The notes beneath the pieces were generated by a model. That model made no database searches. It worked only from the letters and a program-made list of their open reading frames with translations, and was not told where the DNA came from. DNA of 64,000 nucleotides from a virus. Location: IMG/VR virus record IMGVR_UViG_3300028800_000073, positions 1 to 64,000 of that record, one strand, 5' to 3'. Position numbers and translations under genes: made by a program. Below are positions 7,620 through 53,477 of the stretch, piece after piece (position 1 is the stretch's first letter; each line of letters begins with the position of its first letter).

Positions 7620-7966
7620 CGTCGTCCCTATACATGTCTTTGATGCAGGCGACTAGGATCAAGAATCTCAGGGCAAAGTAATCAATGAGCTTTTTCACAG
7701 GAAGTCGCTTCTCCGTAGACCACGGTAGGCATAGGGGTCACGGGCTTCTTCATTGGCGTCAATACGGATCTCTAGCTCTTCCTTGATCCAATCTTGGATA
7801 GCTAGCTCCTCTTTATCAGCTATCTCGTGATAACCAAAGCGCCGACACAATGCTACAAAAGCGCATAGCTCCTCGAATTCCGGTTCGTTGTCTCTTAAAT
7901 AGGTCTCGACTTCAGCACGCATGGCATCATATTCATCGTCTCTAGCATCAGCCATGGTGTAATCAT

Positions 7967-8667: not shown

Positions 8668-9092
8668 TTTGCCTTAGTGGTTTGGTCTACTACGGTGAAT
8701 AGGATTCCGGTATTGGGTAAGTGGAGCTTACGCCATTTCGTCAGTAATGCCTCTTTGTCACCGTAGTCCTTGGTTATGCCATAGGAGTCGGTGACGTAAT
8801 GTCCTTTGTCGTCGACTCTCAAATAGCGATTCCAAGGGCAGTCGCTCATTTCTTGATATAGTCCATGACATCGTCGATGATGCTGCTCTTGAACACCTGT
8901 AGTGCTACTACGAGATCCTTCTTAGCTCTAGAGATCTGCCGGGCATCCTTCTTGGTGCAGGCATCCATGTAGAGTTCAACGAATTCGACGATGTTCTCGA
9001 TGTCGTCATTGGGACGACGCTGTGGTGCTGGTGCGGCCATGGTATCTCCTTAGCAGTAACTAACATACAGGGAATGATGGGTCAACTACTAT

Positions 9093-9566
9093 TCACTCTT
9101 CAAGTATCTTCTCGGCATCCCGTATAATACGGTCTATACCATCGAAATAACCACGGTCGTAATTATCTTTCATCCATTCCAGCCGATTGCTGATACGACA
9201 GCCGTGGATCTTAGTGCCCTCTGCATCTGGGTCATACGGTACGCCGTATGCGTCTATTCTTGTGTGTACGAAGTCCTTAAACTTCTGGAGGTCATCTCCA
9301 CGCTTCTTATGGTTATCGTAACCATGCTTCAGTACCGTAATGAAAGCCAGGATGTTGTTAGCCATTGAGACTGGATTCACTTCGGTATTACCGGGCACCG
9401 CTGTACCGTGAACCCGTAGGAGTTGCATGTACCCCTCATCATCAGCTGGCGGCAGTTCATCCGCAAGCATAGCCTCCATCTCCAATAGCAATCCACTATA
9501 TCCCGGCATTCCAGTCAATATAGCGTCATGGGCGTCTTTGAGGACGCGCTTTAGATCGGAATTCAT
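9093..9566 (-). CDS. Hypothetical phage protein
   Basis: 157 aa ORF with an AAGGAAACAC-ATG RBS. Confidence 0.6.
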   Translation of the reverse strand: MNSDLKRVLKDAHDAILTGMPGYSGLLLEMEAMLADELPPADDEGYMQLLRVHGTAVPGNTEVNPVSMANNILAFITVLKHGYDNHKKRGDDLQKFKDFVHTRIDAYGVPYDPDAEGTKIHGCRISNRLEWMKDNYDRGYFDGIDRIIRDAEKILEE

Positions 9567-11359
9567 GTGTTTCCTTAGAACGCTGCTAGACTGTTGACGA
9601 AGTACACCGGAGTTTTTCCCTCGATTACTTTGATGAAATCACTGTTCTTACTACCATCTGTACCGGGCTTCTGCTGCCACGGTGTGAAGTGGCAAAGCCC
9701 CTCACCGAAGCCGTCACTCATTTGTCCACAGAACTCATCGGCTATCTTCTTGGATGGGAACCTGACTATGATGTCGTAACTCATTTCTTATCTCCGAAGA
9801 AGCCCTTAAACAGGTCTTCCATGGTTGCTTCTTTCTTGATGTCGAATACGGCCTCAATCTTCTTGATAACGTGCCTAACTAAGGCATCATCTACGCTGCC
9901 AATAGTGATGAACACCTTACCACGGGGATGGTTCAAAATGATGTGTTCAGTCATACCACCACGACGTCTGTAGCTTTAGGTTTGTCATCTAGCTCAATCC
10001 ATCCTATGCCTACCCATTCCTTTACTTTGCCTTCATGAACTACTCGCTGGGGAAGCTTCTTGGAATTACAAAAGGATAGACGCTTGAGCTTATCGAACGT
10101 GATTGTCTTAGTCTTAACTGCTTTTGCCATATCATCCCATTGGTTGGCCGTGCGGCGGATTGTCGTGCATCGTCTCGGCTTCGTGCTGCATCTGCATCAA
10201 TTGGCCATGCGTAGTACCCCTGGAGGTTGGAATATCCAATGGCCTATGATGCGGCAAAAGCTGCCTATTATGGTGAACTTTTGACAACTCGTTCTTAAAT
10301 ATTAGGAGCTGCGCTTCCTTCTCCGCGTTCTCCCTGAGAAGCGCATAGATGTAGTGCCTAATGTCTGATATGAGAGACATGTGCTCTACAGCGACTCCAT
10401 CCATGAGTACGTCTAGCTCAATCGCTATGGTCTTATCAATCATGTAGTACTTTCTTAGCCCTATCAGCAAACTCCTGGAATAACTCACGGAGCTGATAAG
10501 CATCGTCTAAAGCCATGTCTAGGTTAATATCAGCTTTACGGGTATTTGGCTGCTTCATGGCAAGGTTTAACTCATCCTGAAACATCTGATGTAAGTCATC
10601 GATTCGTAGGCTAATCTTCAGCAACTGATCTAAATCACGCTTTCTCATTGAGTAACTCCAATTCCTTTATGTATTTACGAAGAAGAATACGTAGTCCAAC
10701 CGGCAGCCACGGACCTTCATGGTAGTTCGTCTCACGGGCTGCGGCTTCTGAATCCAACAGCTCCGCATAAACCTGATCCAGGAAGTCTTCAATATCTAAT
10801 AGCAGTTGACCACGGACATCATGCCTAAAAGCCCACTCACAGGCTTCCCAACCATACTCGAAGTGCTTCTGCTGGTCATCATCCCAACCGGTATGCTTGT
10901 GCATCCGCTCAAGGAGGTCGTAATCGACTTTCATGGTATTGCCTTAAGTAGCTGGTCCAACTCGAATTTGAATTCAGTGATCATCCAACGGAGTCGCATC
11001 TTGTCATTGGCCTGATCTTCTTTGGTCCAGAAATTCAGCGTGTGCTTACATCCCTCTCGCGTCATAGTCTGTACAAACAGGCTCTTGATGTCCTCTAAGT
11101 TAACATCTTTCCAAACCTCAAATCTCTGCTGGTACTTGTCTATCTCTTTAAAGTTCATTGGGTTCCACTGGTTCCTCACGGATAACACCGTACTCCCACT
11201 CAGCGATAAGCTTGTCGAGTTCATCACGGGTATCCTTTAAGTCGCTAACCCCTAGAGTAGAGGTAAGCCCGTTGATATCCCCGGTAAGGTTCCTAACAGC
11301 CATCAACAGAGTAATGAGGCGGTCTATTCTAATCCTGGCATTTCGGTTGTTATAGACAG

Positions 11360-12631: not shown

Positions 12632-13087
12632 CCTGTGCGTTCTACTTCTTCTAATACTTTATCGATCCGCTTCACCTCTGGCTCCATGACCGCTAACATC
12701 GCTTCAGCGGCCTCATTGGAGATACGCGGGCTAGGGAACTGGGCTCCGAAGCCGTGATTGAATAACATATTCACGCAATTCCTGAGTCTGTTAGAATTAT
12801 CTTCTGTAAGCCTCATGTGTTTTCCTGTGATTCAATTCCGAAGTCCGATGGATAGACGTACGTAGCATACGCCATATTTTGATCCCAATCTCTATTATAC
12901 CTATAGTGAGGTACTATAACGCAAGGGTATGTCATTGGTTCCTCGATACGCCAGGTGCAGTAGCGCTCGAAAACAAAGGATGCCTCCACTTCTTCTTTAA
13001 AGAGCGAATAGTCACTGAGATCATCGAAGAAGCACTTACCACCGTATCTAATGAAATCCTTTACTTGCCTTAGCTTCTCTTCTTTAG

Positions 13088-13375
13088 TCATTTGTACTTC
13101 CTAGTCAAATGCTCATGTTCATTGAAGTACCCCAGCGACATCAGGCAGTAGCCCTTCTTCAGACCGGGGAAGTCCCGCATGATATATAAGATGCTGCGAT
13201 AACAATACTTATAGGTGTACTTCTTTGTCTTCGGATCCCACTCCTCTAAGACAAGCGTATCACCGACTCGGAAGTCCCTATCATCTCTACGAAGCTCGTA
13301 GCGTTTAAAGCCTAGGTCCAATGCCTTAAAGAACTTAGGCCATGTCTTCAAATGGTGAACTGTTTCGCGTTTCAT
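13088..13375 (-). CDS. DUF3850 / ASCH-like (PUA-fold) protein
   Basis: HHLKTWPKFF...KRYELRRDDRDFRVGDTLVLEEW; likely start 13375 through a TAATG overlap. Confidence 0.8.
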   Translation of the reverse strand: MKRETVHHLKTWPKFFKALDLGFKRYELRRDDRDFRVGDTLVLEEWDPKTKKYTYKYCYRSILYIMRDFPGLKKGYCLMSLGYFNEHEHLTRKYK

Positions 13376-39888: not shown

Positions 39889-40074
39889 TTACCTTCCGTA
39901 TTCATGCAGTACCCGTGTTTTAACTAGTCGATATTCTATGACCGCCTCTGGATCTTCAATGACTACTCTACGACAGGTGGGGCAGAAGTACAAAGAAGCT
40001 ACCTCATGAACCATATGCTCTTGCATCATATCCCCACAACTACACCCCACACTGTCTTGTCCACACCGGCTCAT
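39889..40074 (-). CDS. Small Zn-ribbon protein
   Basis: CSCG...CPTC; ATGA overlap with the E1 gene. Confidence 0.55.
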   Translation of the reverse strand: MSRCGQDSVGCSCGDMMQEHMVHEVASLYFCPTCRRVVIEDPEAVIEYRLVKTRVLHEYGR

Positions 40075-40757
40075 CGCGCCGCCGCTGCTACCGCTACTGT
40101 CTTAGGGGTGTTGAACAGTTCTAGGGACAATAGATTCAAATTAAAGTCCTTTTCTAATGACATACCCCGTAGGTACTTAGAGAACTGACTAACCATCAGA
40201 CCAGCCGCGATATTGGCTGTGAAGATGGTGGACTTAGCGGTACAACTCCCTTGGAAGGCATCCTCTGCTGCAAATAGGCTATCACCATACGAGGGGGTAA
40301 CGAAGTTGTCTTCGGTCACCACGCGAATGGTCTCAGCCGACATGCGGGCGTCAATGAACACCTCAGTCTCGGGAAGCTTAGCAACCGTAGCGAAGATCTT
40401 ACCTCTTGTGGTAATATCGTCGACACAGCAGAAATAGATATCACCCTTAACTGCGTCACAGAACCGCATGTCATGAGCCGTAGTAGCTCCGGGGTTGAGC
40501 CCCTCACAATCAACAAGAAGAGCATCGACCTTCTTCTTACCGACGTCCCCGGGCCTAAAGCCCTGGGGACCGACATTGACGATGTCAACGGTGTCGAAAT
40601 CAACGATGTTCAATTTACCGATGCCACAGGCAGATAGCTGGAGAGCTACCTGCCTGCCAATGGCGCCGACTCCAATAACAACAGCCGCAGTCGCCTTGAG
40701 ATCTGCGGTTGGCAGCAAAGTAGACTGCCTATCGAACCGTGTTGGTTCAGTAGCCAT
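40071..40757 (-). CDS. ThiF/E1-like Ubl-activating enzyme (module B)
   Basis: RFDRQ, GVGAIG, DFDTVDIVN..Q, KKV, CCVD...R and IDARM; putative catalytic Cys in GSCTAK. Confidence 0.9.
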   Translation of the reverse strand: MATEPTRFDRQSTLLPTADLKATAAVVIGVGAIGRQVALQLSACGIGKLNIVDFDTVDIVNVGPQGFRPGDVGKKKVDALLVDCEGLNPGATTAHDMRFCDAVKGDIYFCCVDDITTRGKIFATVAKLPETEVFIDARMSAETIRVVTEDNFVTPSYGDSLFAAEDAFQGSCTAKSTIFTANIAAGLMVSQFSKYLRGMSLEKDFNLNLLSLELFNTPKTVAVAAAAR

Positions 40758-42202
40758 TAGGATTCCCCTAGCATGATTTGAGTTTCTTCTTCGCTCGCCG
40801 GCTTAGCCGGTGGAGTGCCGCAATACTCAATGAATGAACCACCATTCTCGATAACATCACTTTCGTCGTACATATCCTGGATCTGGAACAGAGCCGCATC
40901 AGCAGTCAGCTCGCCAGATACGACTTTCTCAGCCAATAGCATCTCATCGTGGGTCAGGATGAGGGCATCACAGGCGTCTACGGAGCCACGTAGCTGCCAT
41001 AGACAGTTAGCCCGAACCTTCTTGTACACATTCGTGACGATGTCGCCGGTAATGACGGTATCACCGTACTTCCGGGTATGCGTCAGATTGTTCATTGCTC
41101 TCTCGAAATCATCACGCTCAGCGTTGATGTTCTCTTCGAAGTCAACAAATGCCCACGCCTGACTAAACGGCAAATCGTAGAACGTCTCACCACGAGACAG
41201 CGTAAACCGCTGAGTCCCGTTTGTTACATTTATGACTTCCTTGAAACCATACTCCTTGAGATACTCTACTCTTTCTGGCGTGGAAGGCGGAACCCACTTA
41301 AGCTGCTCCATAGACCAGAGAGCGTCAACGTACGTACCCTCTGCAAGAGTGGGGGGCGTGACGCCACCTTGTTGTCTGGGAAACGGAATCGTGGACAGTG
41401 CCTCCTCCCCATGGGACTTGGCGCCAATTATGATTTCCTGAGTAATCTCCGCGACTGCGTCAGTAATCGCCTGCTGCGTCGGAGTCGTCTCCTGACGAAG
41501 AGCGAGATTCTCCCGTGCAGCAGCTCTAGCGGCCCGCTTCTGCTGCTTCTTGCTAAGAGGCATCTGCTGCTGTACCTGCTTGCCCCAGTACCCACTTGGG
41601 AGCTGTGAGCGCCCCTTGTAGCCACCACGGGTATCTGCGTCTTCACCGTAACCACCATAGGCATAGCCCTGGACAGTAATCTTGGGGGTGATCTCTGCCT
41701 TCCACTCAGCGTGATTAGCGCCCTTGAAGTCAGTGGTAAGAGTCAGCTCCTCCTTGAGCATCATCTGGAGGTTAACATCATTGCCAAGGGATACTCGAAT
41801 ACGGGCATAGAGCGGGCCACCCTTAGGAAGGATAACCATCATTGCCCATGGCATGGAGCCAAAGGATTCAGCGAAAATATTCTCATCGTGCTGCGACGGA
41901 TTCAGGCATCCAGACGGGTGGGTGTGGATGTAGATACGTCCAACCTGATGGGGCTTCAACTTATGCGGCCCCTCGGGGTCACAGTACTTCATGAACATGT
42001 TGTCAGCGATATCCGCTGCGTCCATGTCAACGAATACCGTGGAACACTTCTGCTTCGGAATATACAGATCGGTAACCAAGAATGGGTCAGCCGTTTCAGC
42101 TAGACCCATGGCTCCGACTTCATGGTTATAATGATCGCAGATGAATTGGAGCTTAGCCCGAGCATACGGGGTAAACTTGAGCGTGATGCCGGTGATGTTC
42201 AT
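40757..42202 (-). CDS. JAB/MPN+ metalloprotease with a long C-terminal extension (module B)
   Basis: EVG...HTHPSGCLNPSQHD fits the E...HxH-x7-S-x2-D JAMM motif. Confidence 0.88.
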   Translation of the reverse strand: MNITGITLKFTPYARAKLQFICDHYNHEVGAMGLAETADPFLVTDLYIPKQKCSTVFVDMDAADIADNMFMKYCDPEGPHKLKPHQVGRIYIHTHPSGCLNPSQHDENIFAESFGSMPWAMMVILPKGGPLYARIRVSLGNDVNLQMMLKEELTLTTDFKGANHAEWKAEITPKITVQGYAYGGYGEDADTRGGYKGRSQLPSGYWGKQVQQQMPLSKKQQKRAARAAARENLALRQETTPTQQAITDAVAEITQEIIIGAKSHGEEALSTIPFPRQQGGVTPPTLAEGTYVDALWSMEQLKWVPPSTPERVEYLKEYGFKEVINVTNGTQRFTLSRGETFYDLPFSQAWAFVDFEENINAERDDFERAMNNLTHTRKYGDTVITGDIVTNVYKKVRANCLWQLRGSVDACDALILTHDEMLLAEKVVSGELTADAALFQIQDMYDESDVIENGGSFIEYCGTPPAKPASEEETQIMLGES

Positions 42203-42207
42203 TGTGT

Positions 42208-44604
42208 TTATCTTGATGGGGTTTCGGATATAGCGGGTGCTGCCGTAATGAAGTCTACGTGTGCTAGCCTACAGAGCGTATCAGCAACAACCTCAATTGT
42301 AAGACCAGAACGGAAGGTACCATGGTCATTAAGAGCGCTCCTGAGCCGATGAATGGTTTCATACCAGTCAACGGATTCCCAGTCTTCGAGTTCTGAGCTA
42401 TCCTCTTCAAAATCTTCATCCTTAACAAGTACTAGATCCATGATATACGCCTGAGGCACGAAATGCTGCAACAGAGTCATCAAATAAGCTTCCCGCATAC
42501 CGGGTTGGCATACCGCGTCTGATAGGCCCACTGAAGATGGGTCACAGGTCTTACAGGTCTCGGTATTCATGATCTCATCGAAGGCAACAATGGTATTGTT
42601 GAAAACAGCATCGGACAAATTTATTTCGCCTAGTGTGGCACCACAGCTTGGGCAATTGCACCCCGGCGTTGGAGCTACTACTGGGAACGCTACAGTGGAA
42701 TCCGCTTCAATAGCCGCACGTTGAGCCTCTATAACTGCACGCTGAGCCTCGCGGGCTACTCGTGCTGCCTCACGCTGAGCAGCTTCTAATGCTAGTCTAG
42801 CCTCTATCTCTTTGTTAACACAGTTCGCGCAGATACAAGTGCTGCCTTGATTACGACCGTGGTAGCGCCTGGAATCATATCTGGTATTACACGTTGCACA
42901 CGGCTTGATATAGCGCTTATCAATCGACTGTTTACTGATACCACAGACCTCAGTGCAATTCGGGCACATATGGATATCGGCATGCGGATCACGCTTCCTG
43001 GTCTCAGCGACAAGGGGCGTAGTACAGATATCACAGCGATCCATATCGGACCAATTATCAAGACTGATATATGGCGAACGGCCATACGTCATCAAGATGC
43101 GCTCGATATATTGGAATAGATCCGCGATTAGTCCATTACGCATCAGGTTGCCAGCGGTAGCTAGACCCTCACCGAAACATAGGTGCGTACCCTCAACGTG
43201 GGGGTGCGACCAGCTTGTCCCGCGTTCACGCCTGGGGAAATGCGGGGTAAGCGCCTTAATCCTACAGACTCTATCGACATTACGCTGTGTATCTCCACAG
43301 GCATAACCGAAGTCATACGCTGCGATGATAATAGCGAACTTATTGAACTTAATCGGGATCTTTCTATCGTCCATCAGTTCGACATCTTCGGTTACGAACT
43401 TGATACCAATGGGTGCTACTCCATTGTCTATCATGGAACCCTCTTCATGGAACTGAAGAGCCTTGGCACGCATCAAGGTGGCGCACTCAACGATGAACCG
43501 ATCAATGACGTCTTGCGACGGACGAGGCGGTTCCACGTTGTAGGGGTTCTCACCATTTTTAATGGCCAGCAATTCGTCTAGCACCTTCTTCTTCATGTCA
43601 TTAGAGAAAGCTTCACGAAGAATAGTGGGCAGCTTCTGGGCACTCTCGCCGCAGCAGAACAGGCCGTGCCAATGGGCTAACACATTAGTGACGCGTTGGA
43701 AATTCCCAGCGTTACCATTTGCTGCGCCCTTCTTGAGCCCCTCTTCGTAACCGAAATAGAAGTTCTGCACTACTTTAATGAGTTTGTCTAAATCCTCGAT
43801 GGCATCAGGAACTAGCCTGCGCACCGTCGAGTCTACAGCAGTTCCCTGCTCTGTGTTCAGTGTTCTCACTTGTCTTTCCTGTGGTGTTACTACTGCAATA
43901 GCGCTTCTGTCTGATCCCGTACTAGCGAAGTCGGTACTTACGCTGAAAATTCTGGGAGCGTCGCTACTCACCATAAACATATGCGGTGGTATGCCCATAG
44001 CCCGGGTGTAGTCACTTAATGTAGCCCGCAATGGACCTTCTTCTACTACCATGTGAGCCGGAATCGGCTGGATCGGAGGCGCCATTGGTTCTAACGCCTC
44101 CTGAATAGCACGGAGACTAGCAGCCGCAGATGCAGGGCTGGGGAAGGCGCCAGTTAAGTCGCCACCGACAGTACCAACTGTATTGTTCGCCCCAGCTGCT
44201 CGCTGGCTTTCAATGGCGTGCATAATCTCACGACCATCAGCGTTAATCTCGTCCATCACAGTATGATTAGCCGGTCTACCACGTATCGTAAAAACATCCC
44301 CGGGGCGGATCTGAGTCATTACGGGAGCGCGGCTATTATCCAGTAGAACGCGGTTGACTTCGTCTCTAAACTGTACTTCGCTTAACGGCACTGGTACTGG
44401 GCGGTTAAGTGCCCTATCTACAATATTTGTCGAAGCGTTATCACCGAACTGTTCTCTCCAGGCGCTCTGGCGTACCAAAAGCTCATCTAAGACATCTCGT
44501 GACATATTCGGGAATCGCTCCCGTAAATTAGGGGGATGCCTGAAATAGTCCAGAGCGTCCTGGAGCATGTCATCCGGTGAGGAAAAAGGGTTGAACTCAC
44601 TCAC
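42208..44604 (-). CDS. Prokaryotic E2-like conjugating protein with a C-terminal Cys-rich Zn-finger region (module B)
   Basis: SHPHVEGTHLCFG (HPH...C, E2-like) and SPY..L..W, followed by CDIC, CPNC, CATC, CANC, CPSC and CKTC. Confidence 0.75.
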   Translation of the reverse strand: MSEFNPFSSPDDMLQDALDYFRHPPNLRERFPNMSRDVLDELLVRQSAWREQFGDNASTNIVDRALNRPVPVPLSEVQFRDEVNRVLLDNSRAPVMTQIRPGDVFTIRGRPANHTVMDEINADGREIMHAIESQRAAGANNTVGTVGGDLTGAFPSPASAAASLRAIQEALEPMAPPIQPIPAHMVVEEGPLRATLSDYTRAMGIPPHMFMVSSDAPRIFSVSTDFASTGSDRSAIAVVTPQERQVRTLNTEQGTAVDSTVRRLVPDAIEDLDKLIKVVQNFYFGYEEGLKKGAANGNAGNFQRVTNVLAHWHGLFCCGESAQKLPTILREAFSNDMKKKVLDELLAIKNGENPYNVEPPRPSQDVIDRFIVECATLMRAKALQFHEEGSMIDNGVAPIGIKFVTEDVELMDDRKIPIKFNKFAIIIAAYDFGYACGDTQRNVDRVCRIKALTPHFPRRERGTSWSHPHVEGTHLCFGEGLATAGNLMRNGLIADLFQYIERILMTYGRSPYISLDNWSDMDRCDICTTPLVAETRKRDPHADIHMCPNCTEVCGISKQSIDKRYIKPCATCNTRYDSRRYHGRNQGSTCICANCVNKEIEARLALEAAQREAARVAREAQRAVIEAQRAAIEADSTVAFPVVAPTPGCNCPSCGATLGEINLSDAVFNNTIVAFDEIMNTETCKTCDPSSVGLSDAVCQPGMREAYLMTLLQHFVPQAYIMDLVLVKDEDFEEDSSELEDWESVDWYETIHRLRSALNDHGTFRSGLTIEVVADTLCRLAHVDFITAAPAISETPSR

Positions 44605-44894
44605 GTCTTCCTCGACAACTTCTCAAGCGCAGCATCTAGCCCTTTGACTCTGAACTCGCTGACATCTCCTTCATGGTTACAAAGACCACAAACGCATAGG
44701 CTATGCTCGTGAAAGTCGAATTCGGCCATGTCGACCATTATTCCTTTACTGTCAAAAATACCTACACATACGCCGCCTATCTCAAAACGAGATCTACCTC
44801 CGCATCCCGGGCAGATCAGGTCTTGGGATGTGCCCCGGTTTATGTCGTTTTTCGTTAATCTGAACTTCGTTATTACTTCATTGGGGTCATTCAT
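44601..44894 (-). CDS. Zn-ribbon protein
   Basis: CPGC...CVCGLC; coupled to the E2 gene. Confidence 0.6.
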   Translation of the reverse strand: MNDPNEVITKFRLTKNDINRGTSQDLICPGCGGRSRFEIGGVCVGIFDSKGIMVDMAEFDFHEHSLCVCGLCNHEGDVSEFRVKGLDAALEKLSRKT

Positions 44895-45688
44895 TACTTA
44901 CCTACGATAGTGAACTTCTTTGCTAATTTAAGACGCTTCTGCAATGTCTCACGATCCCAACCCTGGCCCTTGGGCTTCGGCTTAGGGCTAAGCTGGAAAA
45001 CCATAACCAATACACCTTCGCCACCTACGCCTATACTAAGAGTTTCGAGATGCTTACCTACGTGTCCATTCTTATAGCAGCTGGACAACGTAAACTGAAT
45101 GAAATCCTCCTCGCTCGGATTCGGAGTACCATAGTCCAGCACTGCGTTTTCTACTAACCCGGCTCTGTAGGAACTATACTTACAAGGCTTATTGAACGTT
45201 AGGAAGAGTAGCCCACCACGCTTCTTCATCATTGAAGTGAGACCTCTCTCTAATTGCCGAGCACAATCACCGTAGTCGTCGCAGGCTATAACATCGAATT
45301 TCCAGCTATCGCGATCAGCTATCTCGGCAAACTGGGCTGCCATAACTGTAAGCGCGTCGCCGTCTTCCTTGCGTCGGTTAACCATTTCAGAACAGAAGGG
45401 TCGGAAAGCCTTAGTCATCTCACCTTCCTGCCCATCATCCTTAAAAGCATGGGACTGATACAGAACTAGCCCGGATTTACCCTCCAGCCATTTTTGTATG
45501 AGTCCCTGTTTTTCGGTATGGTGCATCGAAGGATGCCCAGTAGCCTTTTTCCATTGACGCCTGTAAATGTTAACCTTAGACAATTCCAAATTCAACTTCT
45601 CGCCAATCTCTTTGTTCGGTGCGCCGCTATGCATCATTGCAAATATTGCGTCACGAAGTTTAGTACCATCAGCTAGGCGTATAGTCAT
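44894..45688 (-). CDS. HTH plus degenerate methyltransferase-like domain protein
   Basis: NKEIGEKLNLELSKV (HTH); FDVIACDDYG...GGLLFLT resembles Trm1-like FDxIDLDPYG. Confidence 0.45.
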   Translation of the reverse strand: MTIRLADGTKLRDAIFAMMHSGAPNKEIGEKLNLELSKVNIYRRQWKKATGHPSMHHTEKQGLIQKWLEGKSGLVLYQSHAFKDDGQEGEMTKAFRPFCSEMVNRRKEDGDALTVMAAQFAEIADRDSWKFDVIACDDYGDCARQLERGLTSMMKKRGGLLFLTFNKPCKYSSYRAGLVENAVLDYGTPNPSEEDFIQFTLSSCYKNGHVGKHLETLSIGVGGEGVLVMVFQLSPKPKPKGQGWDRETLQKRLKLAKKFTIVGK

Positions 45689-45701: not shown

Positions 45702-45737
45702 GAAAAAGATGCCCCCGTGGGGTTACCACGGGGGACT
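45702..45737 (-). terminator. Rho-independent terminator after the poly-Ubl gene
   Basis: Minus strand CCCCCGTGG-taacc-CCACGGGGG then CATCTTTTTC. Confidence 0.75.
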
Positions 45738-45762: not shown

Positions 45763-46428
45763 TTAGGCGCCCTGGACCTTGAGCGGGGTGACGGAGATCT
45801 TGTCCCCGTTACGCAGCACAGTCGCAGCCGTGGAGATCTCGTTGTTCACACGAACGAGCTTGCCACGGATGTCATTCAGGCCCTGCTGAGCAAGGAACTG
45901 AGTCAGGGTGATGCCGTCAATGGTCTGAACGGAGCTGGCGAAGCCGGCACCATCGTTGTTGATGTACAGAACCTTAATGGTCTCCACGGCACCCTGGACC
46001 TTGAGCGGGGTAACCGAGACCTTATCGCCGTTCTGGAGAACGTAACCCGCATCAGCCAGGTTGTTATTCACGCGAACCATCTTGTTGGCGATGCTGACAC
46101 CACGACCCGAAATGAACGCCGCGAGCGTGGTGCCCGGGGTGAACGCAACGGAGTCAGCGAAGCCGCCGCCATCGTTGTTGATGAACAGGACCTTGCTAGC
46201 AGCAGCGGGAGCCGCGTAAGCAGGGGCCGCAGCGAACTCGATCTCAATGTAGTCACCGTGCTTAATCGTAGCGTGACCGCTTGAGGGGGTCTCGGAACGG
46301 TTAATGTAGACGGAGGAACCAGCGGGGAGGCCTAGCGCGTTGATGAGTGCATAGACCGTGATATCACCGGCGAAATCCTTGAATGCCGGGGTGCCGCCGT
46401 TGATTTCAACGTTTACTGAGATAGTCAT
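45763..46428 (-). CDS. Three-domain ubiquitin-like (ThiS/MoaD beta-grasp) precursor
   Basis: Three ~70 aa beta-grasp-like units. Units 2 and 3 share INNDG.GFA, VRVNN and L.NGDK.SVTPLKVQGA. Confidence 0.85.
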   Translation of the reverse strand: MTISVNVEINGGTPAFKDFAGDITVYALINALGLPAGSSVYINRSETPSSGHATIKHGDYIEIEFAAAPAYAAPAAASKVLFINNDGGGFADSVAFTPGTTLAAFISGRGVSIANKMVRVNNNLADAGYVLQNGDKVSVTPLKVQGAVETIKVLYINNDGAGFASSVQTIDGITLTQFLAQQGLNDIRGKLVRVNNEISTAATVLRNGDKISVTPLKVQGA

Positions 46429-46432
46429 TTTG

Positions 46433-48754
46433 TTATTCCTTCTTAGCTAATTTGATGGTTTGATCAAAGAAGCTGGTTAGTGATTCGGCGTGTGTAACTA
46501 TTAATATCTGTCTCCCGGTACTCCCGGAAAACTGCTTTAATTTCAAGAGTAACTGTTGTAGATGAACAACGTTGCTCTCGTCTAAATGGTTCGTCGGTTC
46601 GTCGAGTATGAGTAACCCAACGGAACGCGCAAATGTGTCAGACATCGCGAGGCGGAAGCTTGTACTTGCTACAATCTTCTGACCACCGCTTAACCGGTGA
46701 GCCGGTAGCTCAAAGCCACTACTGAACTTGGCTCTAAACGACAGGTCTGCATCCAAGTAAAATTGAAACGGGGCTTCCCAAATCGCCATATAGTGCGCCA
46801 TGCGCCTATTGATCTTATTGGCGTACTCCCGCATCATTAGAGCTGGTAATCCATTGACATGGACTACTTCTCTAGCTCGGGAACACAGTGAAGACCACTT
46901 AGCGGCATTACGCTCGTGGTCATACTGCTTCCTAAGCTGATCAACCGTACTACGGAGCTGGATAAGCTTGGCCTCAGTAACGCCGAGCTTAGTAACTAGT
47001 TCGCTTCGAGTTTGTGTCCGCGCAGACAATATCTCAATCTTTTCTTGAGCTTCTTGTAACTCTGCTGGGGACATCTCGAACTCACTGGTACCCAGTTTAA
47101 GCACCATATCCTTGAGCCGTGCTACCTCTGACGCACACGACGCTTGGGCTGCTTGCTTAATCTGTACCCCTGACTCCGCTTTAACTACCTGATCCTGTAG
47201 CTCCCTAAAGGCATCTACGGCCTTCTGGAGTGACTCAATTTTACCGCTATCAATGCTGGGCAACCTACTGAGTTGAGTACTGATATCGAGTAAACGATTA
47301 GTACCCTGTTTATAGGCTCCCCATTGTGTCTCCAAAGCGGCCTTACTAGCGAGCATTTGGTCGTATTGCGGTTTCGTGGCTTCAAGCATATTTGCCACAG
47401 CCACGCAAGCCGCTTTACGACGCTCTTCTAGTTGCTCCGATATAGTACCCAAATCCCTCTGGGCAGCAGCGACTCTCATCGATTGGTCGCTCTTAATCTT
47501 AGCTATCTCAGCATGCATAGTAGCGGCACGCTGCTTGAGATCGGCATCATTGAAGTCGACAATAGGCCGGTGGCACGTTGGACAGCTACCATCGGCAAAT
47601 GTCTGTAATTCGTACTGAATCCTGCGGATGTCAGCCTCGATGACCACTAGCTTGGGGTCGTCACGTTTCAGTTCTGACAACTGTTTCGTTAACCCTTCGA
47701 CACGATTCGCTAGATCCCTATCCTCTTCTGTTTGGGGTAAGGGTATCTCTTTGCGAATAATGGCTTTTAACTTTGAGCGGGTCTCGGTGAGCTTATTAAT
47801 GGTCTCATCGTATATAGTGATCTCAGCACCGGGCTTAACCAGTTTGGCGTCAATAGTTTGACGCTCGCTGCTCAATACATTACGTTGTGTCCAAGCTGAC
47901 TTAGCTTGATCCAATTCTTTAGCCTGTTCAGCAGCTCCGGTCCGTAGAGCGGAGAAACGCTGAGCAATGATATCGTATTCCTGCTTGGCTAAACTCAGAA
48001 CCTTGTCGGCCTCTATGTAGCGCTCCTGCGCCAGGGAAAGAGCCTCTTCGGTTTGCCGTTTAGCTGACGCACTCTGTTGAGCGATCCTGTAATGCCTCAG
48101 GCGCTCTTCGTACTTCGACAATCCAAGTAGTTCTTCTTCAATAACCCTGAGTTGCTCCCGGAACTCCTGTAGTTCCGTTGTAACCGTTTGTGCGGCCCCT
48201 GAAGTAACTCCGAGCTGCTCTTCTAGCCCTGGAGTGACAGTCAGAGAAGAAATCTCAGTGGACAGTAACCTGTAGACATCAGCGGCCTTGGATAAGCCGA
48301 AGGTGTCTTGGAACTCTTTGAGTCTCTCGGTATTCGTCTTAAATAGGATGTCGTCAATGGCGTGCTGAGCAATGAAGACGTTGTTGAGCAACGCATCCAT
48401 TCTGGTATTGAGTAGAAGAGTCATCTTCTCTTCTATCTCAGCCTGCCGACTAACGATGCCTCCAGGGAACTTTAATTGTTGCCGAGATGGCTCTAGTACG
48501 CGCTTGATCTCGTAACTGCTATCCCCGTGGGTGAACGCCAACGTAACTGATCCAGTACGTTCACCCACAGTGATATTTTCAGCACGAGGCCCCGACGCGA
48601 CTGACTCACCGGTAACAGCAAATCGGATCGCATCGAGTAGCGACGATTTACCGCAACCATTAGGCCCCAAGATACCGGTCAAGCCTTCACTGAACCGGAT
48701 ATCCAAGGACTTCAGTGGCCCCCAGTTTGTCGTTTGTAGCCGCGTCAGAATCAC
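46433..48754 (-). CDS. sbcC: SbcC/Rad50-like SMC ATPase
   Basis: GPNGCGKS, coiled coils, CPTC zinc hook, LSGGQ, LILDEP and VTH. Confidence 0.92.
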   Translation of the reverse strand: MILTRLQTTNWGPLKSLDIRFSEGLTGILGPNGCGKSSLLDAIRFAVTGESVASGPRAENITVGERTGSVTLAFTHGDSSYEIKRVLEPSRQQLKFPGGIVSRQAEIEEKMTLLLNTRMDALLNNVFIAQHAIDDILFKTNTERLKEFQDTFGLSKAADVYRLLSTEISSLTVTPGLEEQLGVTSGAAQTVTTELQEFREQLRVIEEELLGLSKYEERLRHYRIAQQSASAKRQTEEALSLAQERYIEADKVLSLAKQEYDIIAQRFSALRTGAAEQAKELDQAKSAWTQRNVLSSERQTIDAKLVKPGAEITIYDETINKLTETRSKLKAIIRKEIPLPQTEEDRDLANRVEGLTKQLSELKRDDPKLVVIEADIRRIQYELQTFADGSCPTCHRPIVDFNDADLKQRAATMHAEIAKIKSDQSMRVAAAQRDLGTISEQLEERRKAACVAVANMLEATKPQYDQMLASKAALETQWGAYKQGTNRLLDISTQLSRLPSIDSGKIESLQKAVDAFRELQDQVVKAESGVQIKQAAQASCASEVARLKDMVLKLGTSEFEMSPAELQEAQEKIEILSARTQTRSELVTKLGVTEAKLIQLRSTVDQLRKQYDHERNAAKWSSLCSRAREVVHVNGLPALMMREYANKINRRMAHYMAIWEAPFQFYLDADLSFRAKFSSGFELPAHRLSGGQKIVASTSFRLAMSDTFARSVGLLILDEPTNHLDESNVVHLQQLLLKLKQFSGSTGRQILIVTHAESLTSFFDQTIKLAKKE

Positions 48755-48756
48755 GC

Positions 48757-48963
48757 TTAGTTACTCTTGATCTTCTGGGTCAAGAGAACAGCGTTACCCT
48801 CCATGAGGACGGTGCCAAGGGCGCCGACGCTGCCATTGATGCGGATGTCGAAGCCTGAGGCGTCGATACCAGCTGCTGCTAGGGCATCAGCTACCGTCTT
48901 GCCTTCCGGGAGGTTGAGGGGGCGGATGGATGAGCCAGGGAACTTGCCGATGGTGATATTCAT
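48757..48963 (-). CDS. Single-domain ubiquitin-like (ThiS/MoaD-fold) protein (module A)
   Basis: 68 aa; TVADALAAAGI, IRING and L.EG..VLL; C-terminus KIKSN; directly downstream of E1. Confidence 0.8.
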   Translation of the reverse strand: MNITIGKFPGSSIRPLNLPEGKTVADALAAAGIDASGFDIRINGSVGALGTVLMEGNAVLLTQKIKSN

Positions 48964-48974
48964 GTGATTCTTTC

Positions 48975-49673
48975 TTATGACCGGGTTAGGATACAGGGAG
49001 GTGTGACGCCGAAAATTGTTTCTCTTGGCATCCGTTCGACCTTAGAGGCCTTGTCGGTGTACCAATTGAACCAGTTAATGAAACTCCATACCGCTAGACC
49101 GCTAACGATCTCAGCAGTGGGGCCAACGGTAATTTGCGAACCACAAGCACTGACAACAACGACTTCTTCGTCGCCGCAGAGAGTGCCCTCCCAGAATTTG
49201 ACGTCATCAGGACTCGTCGGACGCACCGTATAGGTACGACCTAAGTCGACACCCATACGGGTCTCGAACATGACGTCGATAAATGGCTTATACCGCACGG
49301 CCCCTTCCCAGATTTCCTTTCTGGAGGACATTGTGTCGGTAAGCAAGAATACTACGGACCCCAGCGTTGTGCGGCCATTAACGGCCTCACAATGTTTGGT
49401 CACGTCTAAATTCGTCTGTGTCTTAATAAGGTCAGCTAAGGCGTCTACCTTGAACTTACCGATGTCGTTGTTGCCGTAAATCTGATTTGCGATATTGTGG
49501 GACTCGACCTTGTCGAAATCCCAGACATGCAAATTGATAACACCGAGCTTAGCCAGACCCATGGCGATACGACTACCAGTGGCTCCGACTCCGATAACGT
49601 CAATACGGGTATTGTCGAACTTAACCGGCGAGAATACCTTTTGGTGCCGCATGGCATCGACTAAGTTACTCAC
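48975..49673 (-). CDS. ThiF/E1-like Ubl-activating enzyme (module A)
   Basis: GVGATG, DFDKVESHNIANQ, KFKV, LTDTMSSR and ETRMG; putative catalytic Cys in SACG; likely GTG start at 49673 overlapping the JAB stop. Confidence 0.9.
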   Translation of the reverse strand: MSNLVDAMRHQKVFSPVKFDNTRIDVIGVGATGSRIAMGLAKLGVINLHVWDFDKVESHNIANQIYGNNDIGKFKVDALADLIKTQTNLDVTKHCEAVNGRTTLGSVVFLLTDTMSSRKEIWEGAVRYKPFIDVMFETRMGVDLGRTYTVRPTSPDDVKFWEGTLCGDEEVVVVSACGSQITVGPTAEIVSGLAVWSFINWFNWYTDKASKVERMPRETIFGVTPPCILTRS

Positions 49674-50433
49674 CCCAGAACGTTTCTTCGCTGAATTGTC
49701 CAAAGCGACCCGACGCAGGACCAGCCTGCTGTCCGGATGCCGAGAACTCCGCATGCGTCTTCATAGGTGCCGCGTGGGGATCTACAAAGTTACTTCTCGG
49801 TGTCGGCGTTGGAGTCTGATATGGATACGAGATCAGAGACTTATTGGCCGAATAAAACGATTCAACCAACGAGTTGACCTCTTTACCCCAGTGGCTTTTT
49901 CGGTCGCCCCCGGCAGCGTAATCGATCTCCCAATCAATATCCTCGACTACGATGTCCATCTCGAACCAGAAGAAGTCCAACTTCATCTTGTGACGCTTGT
50001 TCACGATGCCACGGAGCACCCAGGGGTACTCGTAGTTATCGCGGAACGCCATCGTCTGGTCGTTGTCCTGACCACTGGGCAAAACGTCCATATTGACGTG
50101 GCTATGGAAATAGCCGCGCAAGTTATTGGCACGCCACAACGCTGGATCGATACCAGCGGCCATGTCCTCAGCGATAAGCTGAGTACCTAGTGTGGATAGC
50201 CCCTCGGAAGTCAGCTCAGTGGTTGTCGAGTGAACCTGCTGCTTGAACAAATAGACGTCATCAACATAAATGACGCGCTCGCCGTTCTCTTTGACTAAAC
50301 GAGCCGTGGTCAGCCAGCCGACTTCGGTACTAACAATATCAGTCAAAATCCACATATCCGTAGCCGCCCTGAGTGAGACTTTCACTCGGGGGCAGCCTAG
50401 GACGGTGGTCTGGAATGCATGTGGATTAAACAT
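49666..50433 (-). CDS. JAB/MPN+ metalloprotease (module A)
   Basis: EVGW...HSHVNMDVLPSGQD JAMM motif. Confidence 0.88.
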   Translation of the reverse strand: MFNPHAFQTTVLGCPRVKVSLRAATDMWILTDIVSTEVGWLTTARLVKENGERVIYVDDVYLFKQQVHSTTTELTSEGLSTLGTQLIAEDMAAGIDPALWRANNLRGYFHSHVNMDVLPSGQDNDQTMAFRDNYEYPWVLRGIVNKRHKMKLDFFWFEMDIVVEDIDWEIDYAAGGDRKSHWGKEVNSLVESFYSANKSLISYPYQTPTPTPRSNFVDPHAAPMKTHAEFSASGQQAGPASGRFGQFSEETFWGE

Positions 50434-52175
50434 TAGAACGGCCCTTCTCCTGGAGTTCTTTCTACTTCGTCAGCATCTTCTGGTGCCCCAACTGCTACAA
50501 GCTCTTCTAAAGCAGCGGCAATAACTTCAACAATCTCTGCACCGTCAACAGCAGTAGCCGTGCCAGTAGCGCCGGCTCCGGCATCAACAATCGTTACAGT
50601 ATCAACAGCAACAGGTGGTACCGCAACAGGTGGTACCGCAACAGGTGGTACCGCAACAGGTGGTGCTTCAGCCACTGCTGGGGTTTCTTCTTCACCCTCT
50701 AGAATGCCTTCAACAACAGTCTCAACGGTATCGACTTCAACGGGCTGCCCAGCTGCCGCTCGTGCTGCACGACGCAACTCCCGAGCTGCTTCCTTATCGA
50801 TCTCCTGTTGCTTAACCGATAGCGGCCAAGCATGAACCATCTTGCCGGCGGCGTCGTCAACATTGCAGGTCTGGAGAATCGCAATCACTAGCTCGATGGC
50901 ATCAGCAATCTGATATCCAGCGACTAGCTTCGGTAGCACCTCTTCCATATTGCCGAGACACATACGCCCCGTTGGGAACACATGGGGACCATGCATATTG
51001 GGCTGCATACCAGTCACTTGGCGATCAAGGTTGGTAACGACGATGTTGTACCGCTTGATATCGATATGAATCGACATGCGACCAACTTCGTGCTCCTTCT
51101 TCGACCGTGGATCAACTACTGTCAAAGTATTGGTGCGCACCGTAATATTACCGTTACGCATCCTGATCTGCTGGATCAACGGATTAGCCGCCAGACGATC
51201 ATACTCTGCTGTGAATCGCGGAGTACTGAAATCGGCATCATTGTCTAGTACTGCTATTTCCTTGAGGCACTGGCGTTCTTCGCGGATCCCGTCAAATACC
51301 TTCTTATTCAAGTTCGTAAGCTCGGTCTGGACCGTGTTCAGTCTATTGGTGATCTCACGGACCTGGATCTGCTTACGCTTCTCAACCATTCTGACGTAGT
51401 CCGCTCGTAGCGCTGCTGGATCAGTCTCGACGAGCTTAGCACGGGCATAGTTCTCGGCAACGTATTGAATGATCTTCTTGAAGATCTCAACTTCTCTAGG
51501 GCTATTGTTGTGACACAAGTCCGAATAGATATAGAGGTTATTCTCATCGAAGCCTGCAATCGGTCGCTCGGGATACTCCGGGGAGCAAACGTCTATGCCC
51601 TCAGTCCATGGGACGCCATCCATTGCGTCACGGGTCTGTAACTCCATGCCCCACAGAATCCGAGGTGGATCATACGAGGGCTCGCCTCCATCTCGTGCTT
51701 CTGGAGTAGCCCACACATGAATCTTGAACATCGATTCAAGGGTATTGGGAACAATGGAACGACTATTATGTGGTACGTCGATAGTGACATCGCGCTTAAT
51801 GACGGGGACCAAGATCTCACGGCAGATCTTTAGCCAGCCATCGGCTACTGGGTTACTGACAACACCACCACGGATATGACCCCAGTTAACTATACGGATC
51901 GTTGAAGGATCCCTACCGGCAACGGACGGGGTACCATCACGATAAACAATTTGAGCAACCTTTATGATAACCCCGGCAGCTTCAGCTGTTGGCGGTGTAG
52001 CAACGGTAGCGGTGATATTGTAGAGCTTACGACCAGAGCTTTCAATCTTAGCGATTAATGCTTCTCTAGCTACGAAGTGACCACCATGCTGGGGTTCACC
52101 GTAGATACGCAAGCCGATCCCACGAAGTTCTTCGCGGGACATCTCGGTTGCTTTGACAAGGACTAGTTCAGGCAT
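50433..52175 (-). CDS. Prokaryotic E2-like conjugating protein with a coiled coil (module A)
   Basis: HGPHVFPTGRMCLGN E2-like catalytic motif after a coiled coil; coupled to JAB and sbcD. Confidence 0.75.
   Translation of the reverse strand: MPELVLVKATEMSREELRGIGLRIYGEPQHGGHFVAREALIAKIESSGRKLYNITATVATPPTAEAAGVIIKVAQIVYRDGTPSVAGRDPSTIRIVNWGHIRGGVVSNPVADGWLKICREILVPVIKRDVTIDVPHNSRSIVPNTLESMFKIHVWATPEARDGGEPSYDPPRILWGMELQTRDAMDGVPWTEGIDVCSPEYPERPIAGFDENNLYIYSDLCHNNSPREVEIFKKIIQYVAENYARAKLVETDPAALRADYVRMVEKRKQIQVREITNRLNTVQTELTNLNKKVFDGIREERQCLKEIAVLDNDADFSTPRFTAEYDRLAANPLIQQIRMRNGNITVRTNTLTVVDPRSKKEHEVGRMSIHIDIKRYNIVVTNLDRQVTGMQPNMHGPHVFPTGRMCLGNMEEVLPKLVAGYQIADAIELVIAILQTCNVDDAAGKMVHAWPLSVKQQEIDKEAARELRRAARAAAGQPVEVDTVETVVEGILEGEEETPAVAEAPPVAVPPVAVPPVAVPPVAVDTVTIVDAGAGATGTATAVDGAEIVEVIAAALEELVAVGAPEDADEVERTPGEGPF
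50608..50664. repeat. 15-bp tandem repeat (about 3.8 copies) encoding PPVAV
   Basis: GCAACAGGTGGTACC x3 plus a 12-bp partial copy. Confidence 0.95.
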
Positions 52176-53268
52176 TGATATTTTCTCGTTTCTTAATGAG
52201 TATTTCTACTGGGTCTGAGTTTGGTTCTAAGAGATTGAGTAAGAAGCCGTGTAATTCGGACTGTTTATTGGGGTCGACTAATGTACTAAGTAATGCTGCG
52301 ACAGAGATGTCATCGGTCTCTTGTGACGACTGAAGCTCCTCAGCGTCTTCGGTGTCTAGGACGGGGTCGCGGTGGATGATGGCCTTTCGTGTTTCTACGA
52401 AGCGTTTGTAGATCTCCGAAAATGAGGTATTCATTTCCGGTGAATGATGGATCCAAGCAAATGGGGGAAGTGGTCCAGCTTCCATGTCACCGCAGGCTTC
52501 GCAGAGCCAGTTGTGGACATGAGACAGACCGATATCGTCTAAGACCGTAAAGCGTTTGATATGACGGTACGACAAGGGATGCCGGTCATAGGACAGGTCG
52601 TCGTTAATGACGACACAGCTCTTGGGTCCGATCTGCGTGATATCCCTGGCGTGACCGGGACCGGTATAACAGGCTCGGCGGTTACCGGGTAGTGTGAAGT
52701 CCATCGGTACGTGGATATCACCGATAACAGTCAATTTACAGTTACCCGGAATCCACTCTAAATCACAGTTCCAAGCATTCTCGAAGCCCAGGGCTTGCTT
52801 GACGGCTTGGTGGAGGAACAAAACCCTTTCTGTGCCTTCAGGATCGACTTTGTTGGCTAACCCCTCCAAGGAGGCCTTGATGTCATCTTTCGAGCTGTAA
52901 TCGAACCCCAGGGCAGAGCAACCACCTAAATCAAACGGTTCCCCGTTGCCAACGTACTTCGGCCAGTCATGGAGCGCACTGGGCCACGGAGTCTTTTGGA
53001 GGTCATGATTGCCTTGGATAAAGAATACTGGGATCCCAGCTTCTTTGGCGCGATCCATTTGTCTTCGGTGAATCGTTACGAGATCAGAAGACGGTTTCGT
53101 AGTGTCAAAGAGATCCCCAACGATCACTGCTGGTACCTTCAGCCCAATGGCTGCGCCAATGAAACTGCTGTAACCCAGTTCAGAGTCTCCTCTTACGGTA
53201 TCTATACTACTCCAGATCTTAGGGTCTAAGTGGATGTCTCCAAGTGCTACTGCAATCGGTTTTGTCAT
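52168..53268 (-). CDS. sbcD: SbcD/Mre11-like nuclease
   Basis: GDIH, GDLFD, GNHD, LHQ and GDIH phosphoesterase motifs; sbcC partner downstream. Confidence 0.88.
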   Translation of the reverse strand: MTKPIAVALGDIHLDPKIWSSIDTVRGDSELGYSSFIGAAIGLKVPAVIVGDLFDTTKPSSDLVTIHRRQMDRAKEAGIPVFFIQGNHDLQKTPWPSALHDWPKYVGNGEPFDLGGCSALGFDYSSKDDIKASLEGLANKVDPEGTERVLFLHQAVKQALGFENAWNCDLEWIPGNCKLTVIGDIHVPMDFTLPGNRRACYTGPGHARDITQIGPKSCVVINDDLSYDRHPLSYRHIKRFTVLDDIGLSHVHNWLCEACGDMEAGPLPPFAWIHHSPEMNTSFSEIYKRFVETRKAIIHRDPVLDTEDAEELQSSQETDDISVAALLSTLVDPNKQSELHGFLLNLLEPNSDPVEILIKKRENINA

Positions 53269-53295
53269 AAAGTATTGTCCAAGTTAGTGTTATAC

Positions 53296-53477
53296 AAACG
53301 TGTTCTTAATTCGAGTAAGTACTCTCTATTTTCTTTGTCTATTAGGTCATACAAAGTCTATTATATAGAGAGATATAATATACTTTCCCGCAATAAGAAC
53401 ACGTTTTGGGACCTACTGAAAAATCATGTTCTTATTAATGGAAAGTATTATAATACTTTCTCGAATTAAGAACATGT
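53296..53477. repeat. AT-rich element with four ~25-bp repeats in two inverted pairs and a perfect 20-bp palindrome; candidate origin or operator
   Basis: TGTTCTTA-N6-G(A/T)AAGTA units near 53299(+), 53403(-), 53425(+) and 53476(-); GAAAGTATTATAATACTTTC at 53441-53460. Confidence 0.8.

Follow-up and report, generated by a model that had tools for sequence, protein, structure and literature searches.

Known prokaryotic systems that conjugate ubiquitin-like proteins (Ubls) serve bacteria against phages, as is the case for type II CBASS (an anti-phage system that signals through cyclic oligonucleotides) and Bil and, judged by its genomic context, for Bub. In type II CBASS, Cap2 is an E2-E1 fusion and the CD-NTase is the conjugated protein. 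Bil operons are bacterial anti-phage operons encoding a Ubl (BilA), an E2 (BilB), a JAB deubiquitinase (BilC) and an E1 (BilD) (PMC11601603), and Bub works through oxyester intermediates, with an E1 that has no catalytic Cys, an E2 with Ser and a serine (Ser-His) peptidase (Ye et al., PMC11601596). A paper of 2006 had already predicted prokaryotic E1/E2/JAB/Ub-like operons and triple-Ub proteins (classes 6a-6e; Iyer, Burroughs and Aravind, PMC1779556), which were later characterized as type II CBASS, Bil and Bub. Here we describe a large family of complete E1/E2/JAB/Ubl cassettes that is carried by phages and whose E2 family has no Pfam model, starting from the IMG/VR virus record IMGVR_UViG_3300028800_000073. 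The stretch analyzed, hereafter called the window, covers the initial 64 kb of this 79,824-bp record (CheckV completeness 43%). In it one such cassette, module A, lies between sbcD and sbcC, the genes of the Mre11- and Rad50-type proteins.

We put at roughly 55% the probability that module A is a cassette inserted once at the sbcD/sbcC junction, its placement reflecting that junction and co-expression, with a target that is not SbcCD specifically. The locus consists of seven open reading frames (ORFs) in the order stated by the original prediction, which is confirmed by the ORF coordinates, and of a terminator:

52168-53268, minus strand: sbcD, Mre11-type nuclease, 366 aa
50433-52175, minus strand: E2-like protein A, 580 aa, overlapping sbcD by 8 bp
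49666-50433, minus strand: JAMM/JAB metallopeptidase A, 255 aa, overlapping the E2-like gene by 1 bp
48975-49652 (or 48975-49754), minus strand: E1 A, ThiF-type adenylation domain, likely start ATG 49652, 225 aa
48757-48963, minus strand: Ubl A, 68 aa, 11-bp gap after E1
46433-48754, minus strand: sbcC, Rad50-type ATPase, 773 aa, GTG start, 2-bp gap after Ubl A
45763-46428, minus strand: triple beta-grasp poly-Ubl, 221 aa, 4-bp gap after sbcC
45702-45734, minus strand: intrinsic terminator of the sbcD-to-poly-Ubl unit, 9-bp stem (8 GC pairs), 5-nt loop, tail CATCTTTTTC

The order had been described as having overlaps or gaps of 11 bp or less throughout. This is true of all junctions except that from JAB to E1, which is a 13-bp gap with the ATG 49652 start and an 89-bp overlap with ATG 49754. 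Stem and loop of the terminator (45734-45712 on the minus strand) lie between the stop of the triple Ubl and the next ATG at 45688. It is the sole strong terminator within the stretch examined, the remaining terminator-like matches being weak and intra-ORF, with a total count not above that of shuffled sequence. The tight junctions together with the single terminator make one transcript from sbcD to the poly-Ubl plausible, as had been proposed.

In order to place module A within its family, loci were retrieved with a JAB profile, which yielded 102 confirmed stretches and 79 viral loci in IMG/VR, and their ORFs were searched with the window proteins. All 79 of these loci have a JAB gene, 75 have E1, 69 have a Ubl and at least 50 have E2. 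In 185,579 species genomes the JAB family was found at only 22 loci, 21 of them on contigs of metagenome-assembled genomes. The cassette family is large and apparently phage-specific.

An E1 is marked by a Rossmann GxGxxG ATP site, conserved Arg, Asn, Gln, Lys and Asp residues and a catalytic Cys for the thioester. E1 A matches Pfam ThiF at 5.4e-16 (58.9 bits, cut-off 28.1) and conserves GxGATGS, D45, K68, D106, R132 and Cys170, the last within SxCG and found in 69 of 69 homologues. It is a ThiF/MoeB/Uba adenylation protein, in which Cys170 would carry the thioester. JAB A contains the JAMM motif HSHVNMDVLPSGQD; its zinc site (E ... H-x-H-x7-S-x2-D) is made up of E37, H110, H112, S120 and D123, none of which varies among 26 homologues. 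Pfam Prok-JAB is matched by six of these 26 family members, JAB A of the window being below threshold (E 0.044). Ubl A is assigned to the beta-grasp fold on weak matches to Pfam Ub-RnfH and DUF348, and its family adjoins the cassette in 69 of the 79 loci.

A conjugatable Ubl is a beta-grasp domain with a C-terminal Gly that is exposed or can become so. The C-terminal consensus of the Ubl family is K-G-N, often in tandem repeats, and the triple Ubl has Q-G-A; Ubl A ends in KIKSN (K-S-N), its small penultimate residue being followed by at least one more. This tail is shared with the orthologue at 12955-13161 of locus L003, a 58-79% identical relative. The usual end in the rest of the family, with few exceptions, is K-G-N or a variant such as K-G-A or K-G-N-K. 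Either the Ser tail is tolerated by E1 and JAB, or Ubl A may no longer be conjugated in this lineage.

UBC-fold (ubiquitin-conjugating) E2s are characterized by a helix, a four-stranded sheet, an HPN loop, the Cys and C-terminal helices. E2-like protein A comprises an N-terminal domain, a coiled coil (residues ~253-312), a UBC-fold domain (~318-455) and a low-complexity tail, with the candidate catalytic Cys406 within HGPHVFPTGRMCLGN. Its full-length structure model was poor (predicted local distance difference test, pLDDT, 57.6), and a model of the domain alone was used (residues 300-470, 24 homologues; pLDDT 92.4). The top 50 Foldseek matches of this model are all UBC E2s, with probabilities up to 0.94 and E ~1e-2. 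VIA aligned it to UBE2S with Z 7.9 (root-mean-square deviation 3.7 A, 118 residues) and gave Z 7.4-7.9 over 112-121 residues overall, a range that the tool itself rates as middling. We consider these values persuasive because they combine with an HPxV-x5-C-L-G motif at the E2 active-site position. The motif is found family-wide: P98, H99 and G109 are invariant in the 24 homologues, and conservation of the Cys reaches at least 90%. According to the model, E2-like protein A carries a UBC-fold E2 domain.

By sequence the E2 family stands apart. E2-like protein A has no match in Pfam, PHROG or PADLOC even at E 10, and none of the 24 family members matches the curated E2 families (Pfam UQ_con, Prok-E2_A to E) at E<=1. 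Sequence-profile searches of the PDB gave nothing usable for the E2 (one marginal E2 match, E 1.8), and a homologue search returned only four proteins among 5.8 billion, two of them on contigs of 42 kb and 190 kb. For the N-terminal 250 residues, the ESM Atlas gave no usable feature match, and all structure rows had TM <=0.33.

According to conserved residues and the domain model, module A has the complete active sites of a JAMM peptidase, a Cys-bearing E1 and a Cys-bearing UBC-fold E2. We posit that it is a self-contained Ubl conjugation cassette of phage type, whose chemistry likely proceeds as follows. The JAMM peptidase would trim the residue or residues after the small penultimate Ubl residue (family K-G-N; here K-S-N), and E1 would adenylate the new C-terminus and then take the Ubl onto Cys170 as a thioester. 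The Ubl would then move to Cys406 of the UBC-fold E2, which, probably via its N-terminal region, would deliver it to a target lysine. JAB may also take the Ubl off again.

It is very improbable that E1 and Ubl instead form a sulfur-carrier pair like ThiF/ThiS or MoeB/MoaD, with JAB maturing the carrier and no protein being tagged. The E1 is a minimal 225-aa adenylation domain, the Ubl is ThiS-sized, and cultured phages have distant E1 homologues that bear the annotation thiamine biosynthesis protein. However, at least 50 of the 79 loci also encode a UBC-fold protein with the HPxV...C motif, the family is rich in tandem poly-Ubl precursors, and the recurrent neighbours include no sulfurtransferase or thiamine/molybdopterin genes.

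As far as can be judged from its residues, the cassette chemistry differs from that of Bub and resembles that of Bil. In both cassette and Bil, the Ubl, the Cys-bearing UBC-fold E2, the JAMM peptidase and the ThiF-type E1 are each encoded by a gene of their own, and Ubls have up to three beta-grasp domains. In contrast to Bil, the cassette is phage-encoded and not situated in bacterial defence islands, its usual neighbours are replication genes, its E2 matches no Pfam or PADLOC model and has a long N-terminal region and a coiled coil, its Ubl tail is K-G-N (K-S-N here), and its conjugation is known as a prediction only. PADLOC, in a release whose coverage of Bil models is uncertain, gave no match for E2, JAB or Ubl, and E1 matched only Cap2-type 'E1-E2' models (best 7.9e-16). 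With Bub the cassette shares a single operon for E1, E2, Ubl and peptidase and, by prediction, a Ubl precursor that is cleaved before use, but its E1 has Cys170 (69/69), its E2 has the Cys (at least 90%), and its peptidase is a JAMM metalloenzyme. The likeness to Cap2/Cap3 of type II CBASS lies in the JAB peptidase and in the match of E1 to the E1 part of the PADLOC models. Unlike in CBASS, E1 (225-259 aa) and E2 (580 aa) are separate ORFs and a dedicated Ubl replaces the CD-NTase; no CD-NTase or effector match was found among the scanned window genes or the annotated recurrent neighbours.

The four-component logic, and Ubls of two to three domains likened to eukaryotic poly-ubiquitin, also appear in the passages of PMC1779556 on classes 6a-6e. 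The phage content of these passages is different, being the Ubl and JAB of lambdoid/T1 tail assembly (TAPI/TAPK), and the passages searched mention no phage E1/E2 cassette or association with SbcCD. Literature searches for phage-encoded Ubl conjugation cassettes or an SbcCD association found no relevant paper.

Mre11/SbcD proteins are marked by the calcineurin-like phosphoesterase motifs D-x-H, G-D and G-N-H-D/E and further His motifs, and Rad50/SbcC proteins by a split ABC head with Walker A, Q-loop, LSGGQ signature, Walker B and H-loop, whose two parts flank a long coiled coil that bears a CxxC zinc hook at its middle. The window SbcD matches Pfam Metallophos at 4.3e-07, above the cut-off, and phrog_100 (SbcD-like). 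Its motifs I-III (GDIHLD, GDLFD, GNHD) are invariant in four orthologues and identify it as Mre11/SbcD; motifs IV/V were read by eye only. SbcC matches SMC_N (4.7e-20), AAA_23 and phrog_77 (4.1e-40 over the full length). Walker A G30-K36, Q130, C391/C394 (CPTC zinc hook), LSGGQ 688-692, Walker B D718/E719 and H755 are invariant in six orthologues, which gives SbcC both the split ABC head motifs and the zinc hook of Rad50. These full catalytic motif sets and the hook constitute the likeness to phage and bacterial SbcCD and to T4 gp47-gp46 (Mre11-Rad50).

The order of sbcD and then sbcC is likewise that of most viral loci examined. A single-protein SbcC query of viral DNA returned nothing, and an SbcC profile fetched 80 viral loci. 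The statement that the two genes are normally adjacent holds, since they overlap or lie within 32 bp of each other in 20 of the 32 viral loci in which both were detected, whereas in the window they are 3.4 kb apart, with the Ubl cassette filling the space. In the other 12 of 32 phage loci the distance is 0.45-3.7 kb, and the eight of these gaps that were inspected contain only unrelated small ORFs. The sbcD/sbcC junction is normally closed but often opened by phages.

Whether the interleaved order recurs in other phages had been posed as a check of the original prediction, and it does, in three further lineages (four records; loci L003/L004, L005/L034 and L029) of phages of roughly 180 kb. L005/L034 is a complete genome of 180,134 bp with terminal repeats, and L029 has 179,364 bp. 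The shared order is sbcD, E2, JAB, E1, Ubl, sbcC, Ubl or poly-Ubl, followed by a second E2, JAB and E1 (E2-B, JAB-B and E1-B, together module B) and a helicase. Identity of SbcC to that of the window is 79% (L003/L004), 32% (L005/L034) and 36% (L029). The tight junctions are kept in L003, L005 and L029, and in L003 and L005, as in the window, the E2 gene starts within the end of sbcD. The E1 proteins of module A from the four interleaved phages form one clade (100/97), the sisters of which, L020 and L009, carry the cassette elsewhere. This single clade argues for one old insertion of module A that was then retained, and the interleaving is real, old and clade-specific.

Across phage groups, the surroundings of the cassette tend to be genes of replication or recombination. 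Recurrent neighbour clusters in the 79 loci are DnaB, family-A DNA polymerase (PolA), a Sak4-like AAA_24 ATPase, a DUF5906 primase-helicase, DnaG primase and an SNF2 helicase. Among the 64 loci that reach 12 kb, 54 have a replication or recombination gene in the fetched flanks, a count made on loci that were not dereplicated and with no control set. Typically, the cassette lies within a block of replication and recombination genes, and this is a broader signal than the one from SbcCD. The placement may indicate a target in DNA metabolism, or may equally reflect merely early or middle expression; replication blocks also house many early accessory genes of phages.

Distant E1 homologues (28-34% identity) occur in two cultured phages that might serve as laboratory models. 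In Xanthomonas phage PhiXhv-12 (L163 8929-9612) the gene lies near ligase and topoisomerase genes, and in Flavobacterium phage FpV4 (L164 7944-8630) near genes for a Sak4-like protein, a primase, a uracil-DNA glycosylase, exonuclease VIII and a helicase. Their annotation as 'thiamine biosynthesis protein (ThiF)' is probably wrong. One of the two phages has a marginal E2 match, and JAB hidden Markov models (HMMs) found no match in either. We therefore rejected these loci as instances of the same cassette, as they offer only a distant E1 and no JAB by HMM.

The position between sbcD and sbcC offers a concrete first hypothesis about the target, namely that in this clade SbcC or SbcD is what the cassette tags or regulates, or that it acts on DNA-end processing and recombination-dependent replication, like ubiquitin and SUMO on eukaryotic MRN (Mre11-Rad50-Nbs1). 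In its favor, the interleaved order and tight junctions are kept in the window and three lineages, sbcD and E2 are translationally coupled, the cassette lies among replication and recombination genes in 54 of 64 loci, and the distant E1s of cultured phages are near exonuclease VIII, Sak4-like, ligase and topoisomerase genes. The comparative data, however, make this hypothesis probably too narrow. Just 11 of the 49 records with a cassette match phrog_77 (SbcC); of the 28 whose completeness is 90% or higher, 7 match. Conversely, cassette genes within 8 kb are found in the 80 SbcC-profile loci only in the interleaved clade and in the L057 group of 171-174-kb phages, where four unrelated genes lie between sbcD and sbcC and JAB-E1 follows 3 kb downstream. 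In the nearest outgroups the cassette lies away from SbcCD: the 206-kb phage L020 is complete and has no SbcC, its cassette neighbouring an Apyc1-like protein, RlaP and ThyX, and in L009 SbcC is more than 20 kb from the cassette, which has a TnpB-like neighbour. Moreover, the second flanking Ubl would belong to module B, replication clusters also hold many early accessory genes, and in the clade collinearity extends over all 17 kb of the region, so that the conserved order may be simple inheritance.

Taken together, we regard SbcCD as a possible but not favored target. Of the link to DNA-end processing that the original prediction had drawn, the placement among replication and recombination genes stands, while most cassette phages have no SbcC. 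Part of what the prediction had named as speaking against it is in fact seen, namely homologous cassettes at unrelated loci in more distant phages (SbcC in 11 of 49 records; sisters L020 and L009 elsewhere). More doubtful still is the specific idea that in the roughly 180-kb clade the cassette regulates the phage's own Mre11-Rad50, for example by tagging SbcC, SbcD or a DNA-end protein. If true, it would amount to a switch between host-DNA degradation and recombination-dependent replication, to a counterpart in prokaryotic viruses of ubiquitin/SUMO control of MRN, and to the first Ubl conjugation system shown to serve a phage and not to oppose one.

The E2 coiled coil was considered as a specific partner of the SbcC coiled coil. 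It is, however, found throughout the E2 family, and together with E2 region 115-300 it is conserved in L020 and L039, two records without SbcC, and also in L067, a record that is 41% complete. Conservation without SbcC argues against a dedicated SbcC-pairing role, and this candidate was rejected. Co-folding of E2 (1-470) with SbcD scored 0.00 in two runs without controls, which is evidence neither way.

The explanation that we prefer is an insertion at a junction that phages often break. Module A would have entered the sbcD/sbcC junction a single time, in the common ancestor of a soil-phage clade with genomes of roughly 180 kb, and would have been kept since, transcribed and translationally coupled with sbcD and sbcC in one early or middle operon. 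Its position would reflect an often-broken junction and co-expression with genes of DNA metabolism, with no requirement for SbcCD. Our best guess for the target is a protein of the replication phase, of phage or host, and not SbcCD specifically.

Several points weigh against this interpretation. The interleaving survives down to 32-36% SbcC identity, a divergence across which its neighbourhood did change by gain or loss (genes for a 264-aa and a 97-aa protein; a triple versus a single Ubl). Such persistence amid the turnover of neighbours could point to selection for the sbcD/sbcC position, and overlaps of the type seen between sbcD stop and E2 start are often found for proteins made in fixed ratios. 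The enrichment of replication and recombination genes means that a target in DNA metabolism may be real and should not be dismissed. In addition, the window Ubl has Ser where the family has Gly, and conjugation by the family members is itself predicted.

A role in host takeover or counter-defence is likewise possible, though we do not lean towards it. Host proteins such as nucleases or immune proteins would be tagged, or JAB would undo Ubl-based host defences, and the position between sbcD and sbcC would signify early expression only. Phage-host conflict is the setting in which all characterized prokaryotic E1/E2/JAB conjugation systems work (PMC11601603, PMC11601596), phages of unrelated backbone have the cassette, which moves between them, and an Apyc1-like gene (86 bits, cut-off 50) is located ~2 kb upstream in the closest outgroup, L020. 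This single neighbour is anecdotal, however; the commonest neighbours are replication genes and not known anti-defence genes, and no target or defence system was identified. Identification of the tagged proteins would show what role Ubl chemistry plays for a virus of bacteria, and could uncover a further level at which phage DNA metabolism is controlled, or counter-defence of a new kind.

The Apyc1-like gene of L020 (3964-4806) encodes a protein of metallo-beta-lactamase fold that matches Pfam Anti-Pycsar Apyc1 at 3.8e-24 (85.9 bits), and it adjoins the gene of the RlaP nucleotidyltransferase.

Downstream of the terminator, module B is encoded together with two small genes, its motifs having been located by script:

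40071-45688, minus strand: module B and two small genes (264-aa protein, 97-aa protein with 2x CxxC, E2-B, JAB-B, E1-B)
42208-44604, minus strand: E2-B, 798 aa, motif HPHVEGTHLCFG at residues 467-478, then six CxxC pairs
within 40071-45688, minus strand: JAB-B, 481 aa, motif HTHPSGCLNPSQHD
within 40071-45688, minus strand: E1-B, 228 aa, ThiF 2e-21 for module B

Orthologues of E2-B, JAB-B and E1-B occur in the same order in L003/L004, L005/L034 and L029, and those of the 264-aa and 97-aa proteins only in L003/L004. E1-B forms a separate long-branch clade in the E1 tree, which argues that module B is not a recent copy of module A. The six CxxC pairs of E2-B may represent a built-in zinc-finger E3 or adaptor. 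The L029 orthologue of E2-B has the same motif and CxxC layout.

The triple poly-Ubl matches the Ubl HMM at 6e-08 in L083, its units 2 and 3 end in SVTPLKVQGA, and its matches to Ub-Mut7C and TGS are sub-threshold. In L005 the poly-Ubl directly precedes E2-B, and in L029 a single 89-aa Ubl (ending in KVTVTPSNPEGN, EGN) takes its place. Many cassettes of the family are ordered Ubl-E2-JAB-E1, others E2-JAB-E1-Ubl. Most simply, the poly-Ubl would be the tag of module B. Rad50 thus lies between two Ubl genes because module A ends, and module B begins, with its own Ubl, and no property of Rad50 is needed. The flanking of Rad50 by a Ubl on each side, to which the original prediction had drawn attention, is a fact of the locus, but as a sign specific to Rad50 it is explained by the ends of the two modules.

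Head-to-tail poly-Ubl genes are common in the phage family, with two or three repeats that each have the same K-G-N or Q-G-A tail (for example L019 2264-2896, L009 11486-11917, L012 7526-8344, L018 5547-6323, L067 11454-11867 and window 45763-46428). Some carry an extra C-terminal domain. By analogy they look like polyubiquitin precursors; alternatively, they may remain intact. The triple-beta-grasp Ubls of Bil and Bub form filaments (PMC11601603).

Upstream of sbcD, a non-coding gap of 197 bp (53269-53465) is followed by a conserved 238-aa gene. This gap is likely the control region of the operon; a sigma-70-like promoter was searched for on its minus strand and not found. The run search listed no RNA sequencing runs holding the stretch, and the 7.6-kb region had no blastn match among 50,697 phage records. 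DNA of the window recurs in rhizosphere metagenomes, where the best run holds at most 0.33 of the sampled words.

Within the L057 group, complete phages (L057 9968-11466; also L066, L080 and L076) have only a JAB-E1 pair, located after sbcC, a helicase and a dUTPase. No E2 or Ubl was recognisable near this pair in our searches; L104 has a weak Ubl match after E1. Several of the few non-viral matches are on contigs binned as Candidatus Saccharibacteria (L173 6899-10624, on a 1.2-Mb contig, and L165, L169, L172, L174 and L180). The cassette of L173 is possibly a prophage, and these matches may hint at Saccharibacteria as hosts of some family members. In L020, two adjacent E2 paralogues are encoded (7012-8619 and 8620-9981), the second of which has no active-site Cys (APHVELSGYPVAG). 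By analogy, this pair recalls Ubc13/Mms2, an active E2 accompanied by a ubiquitin E2 variant.

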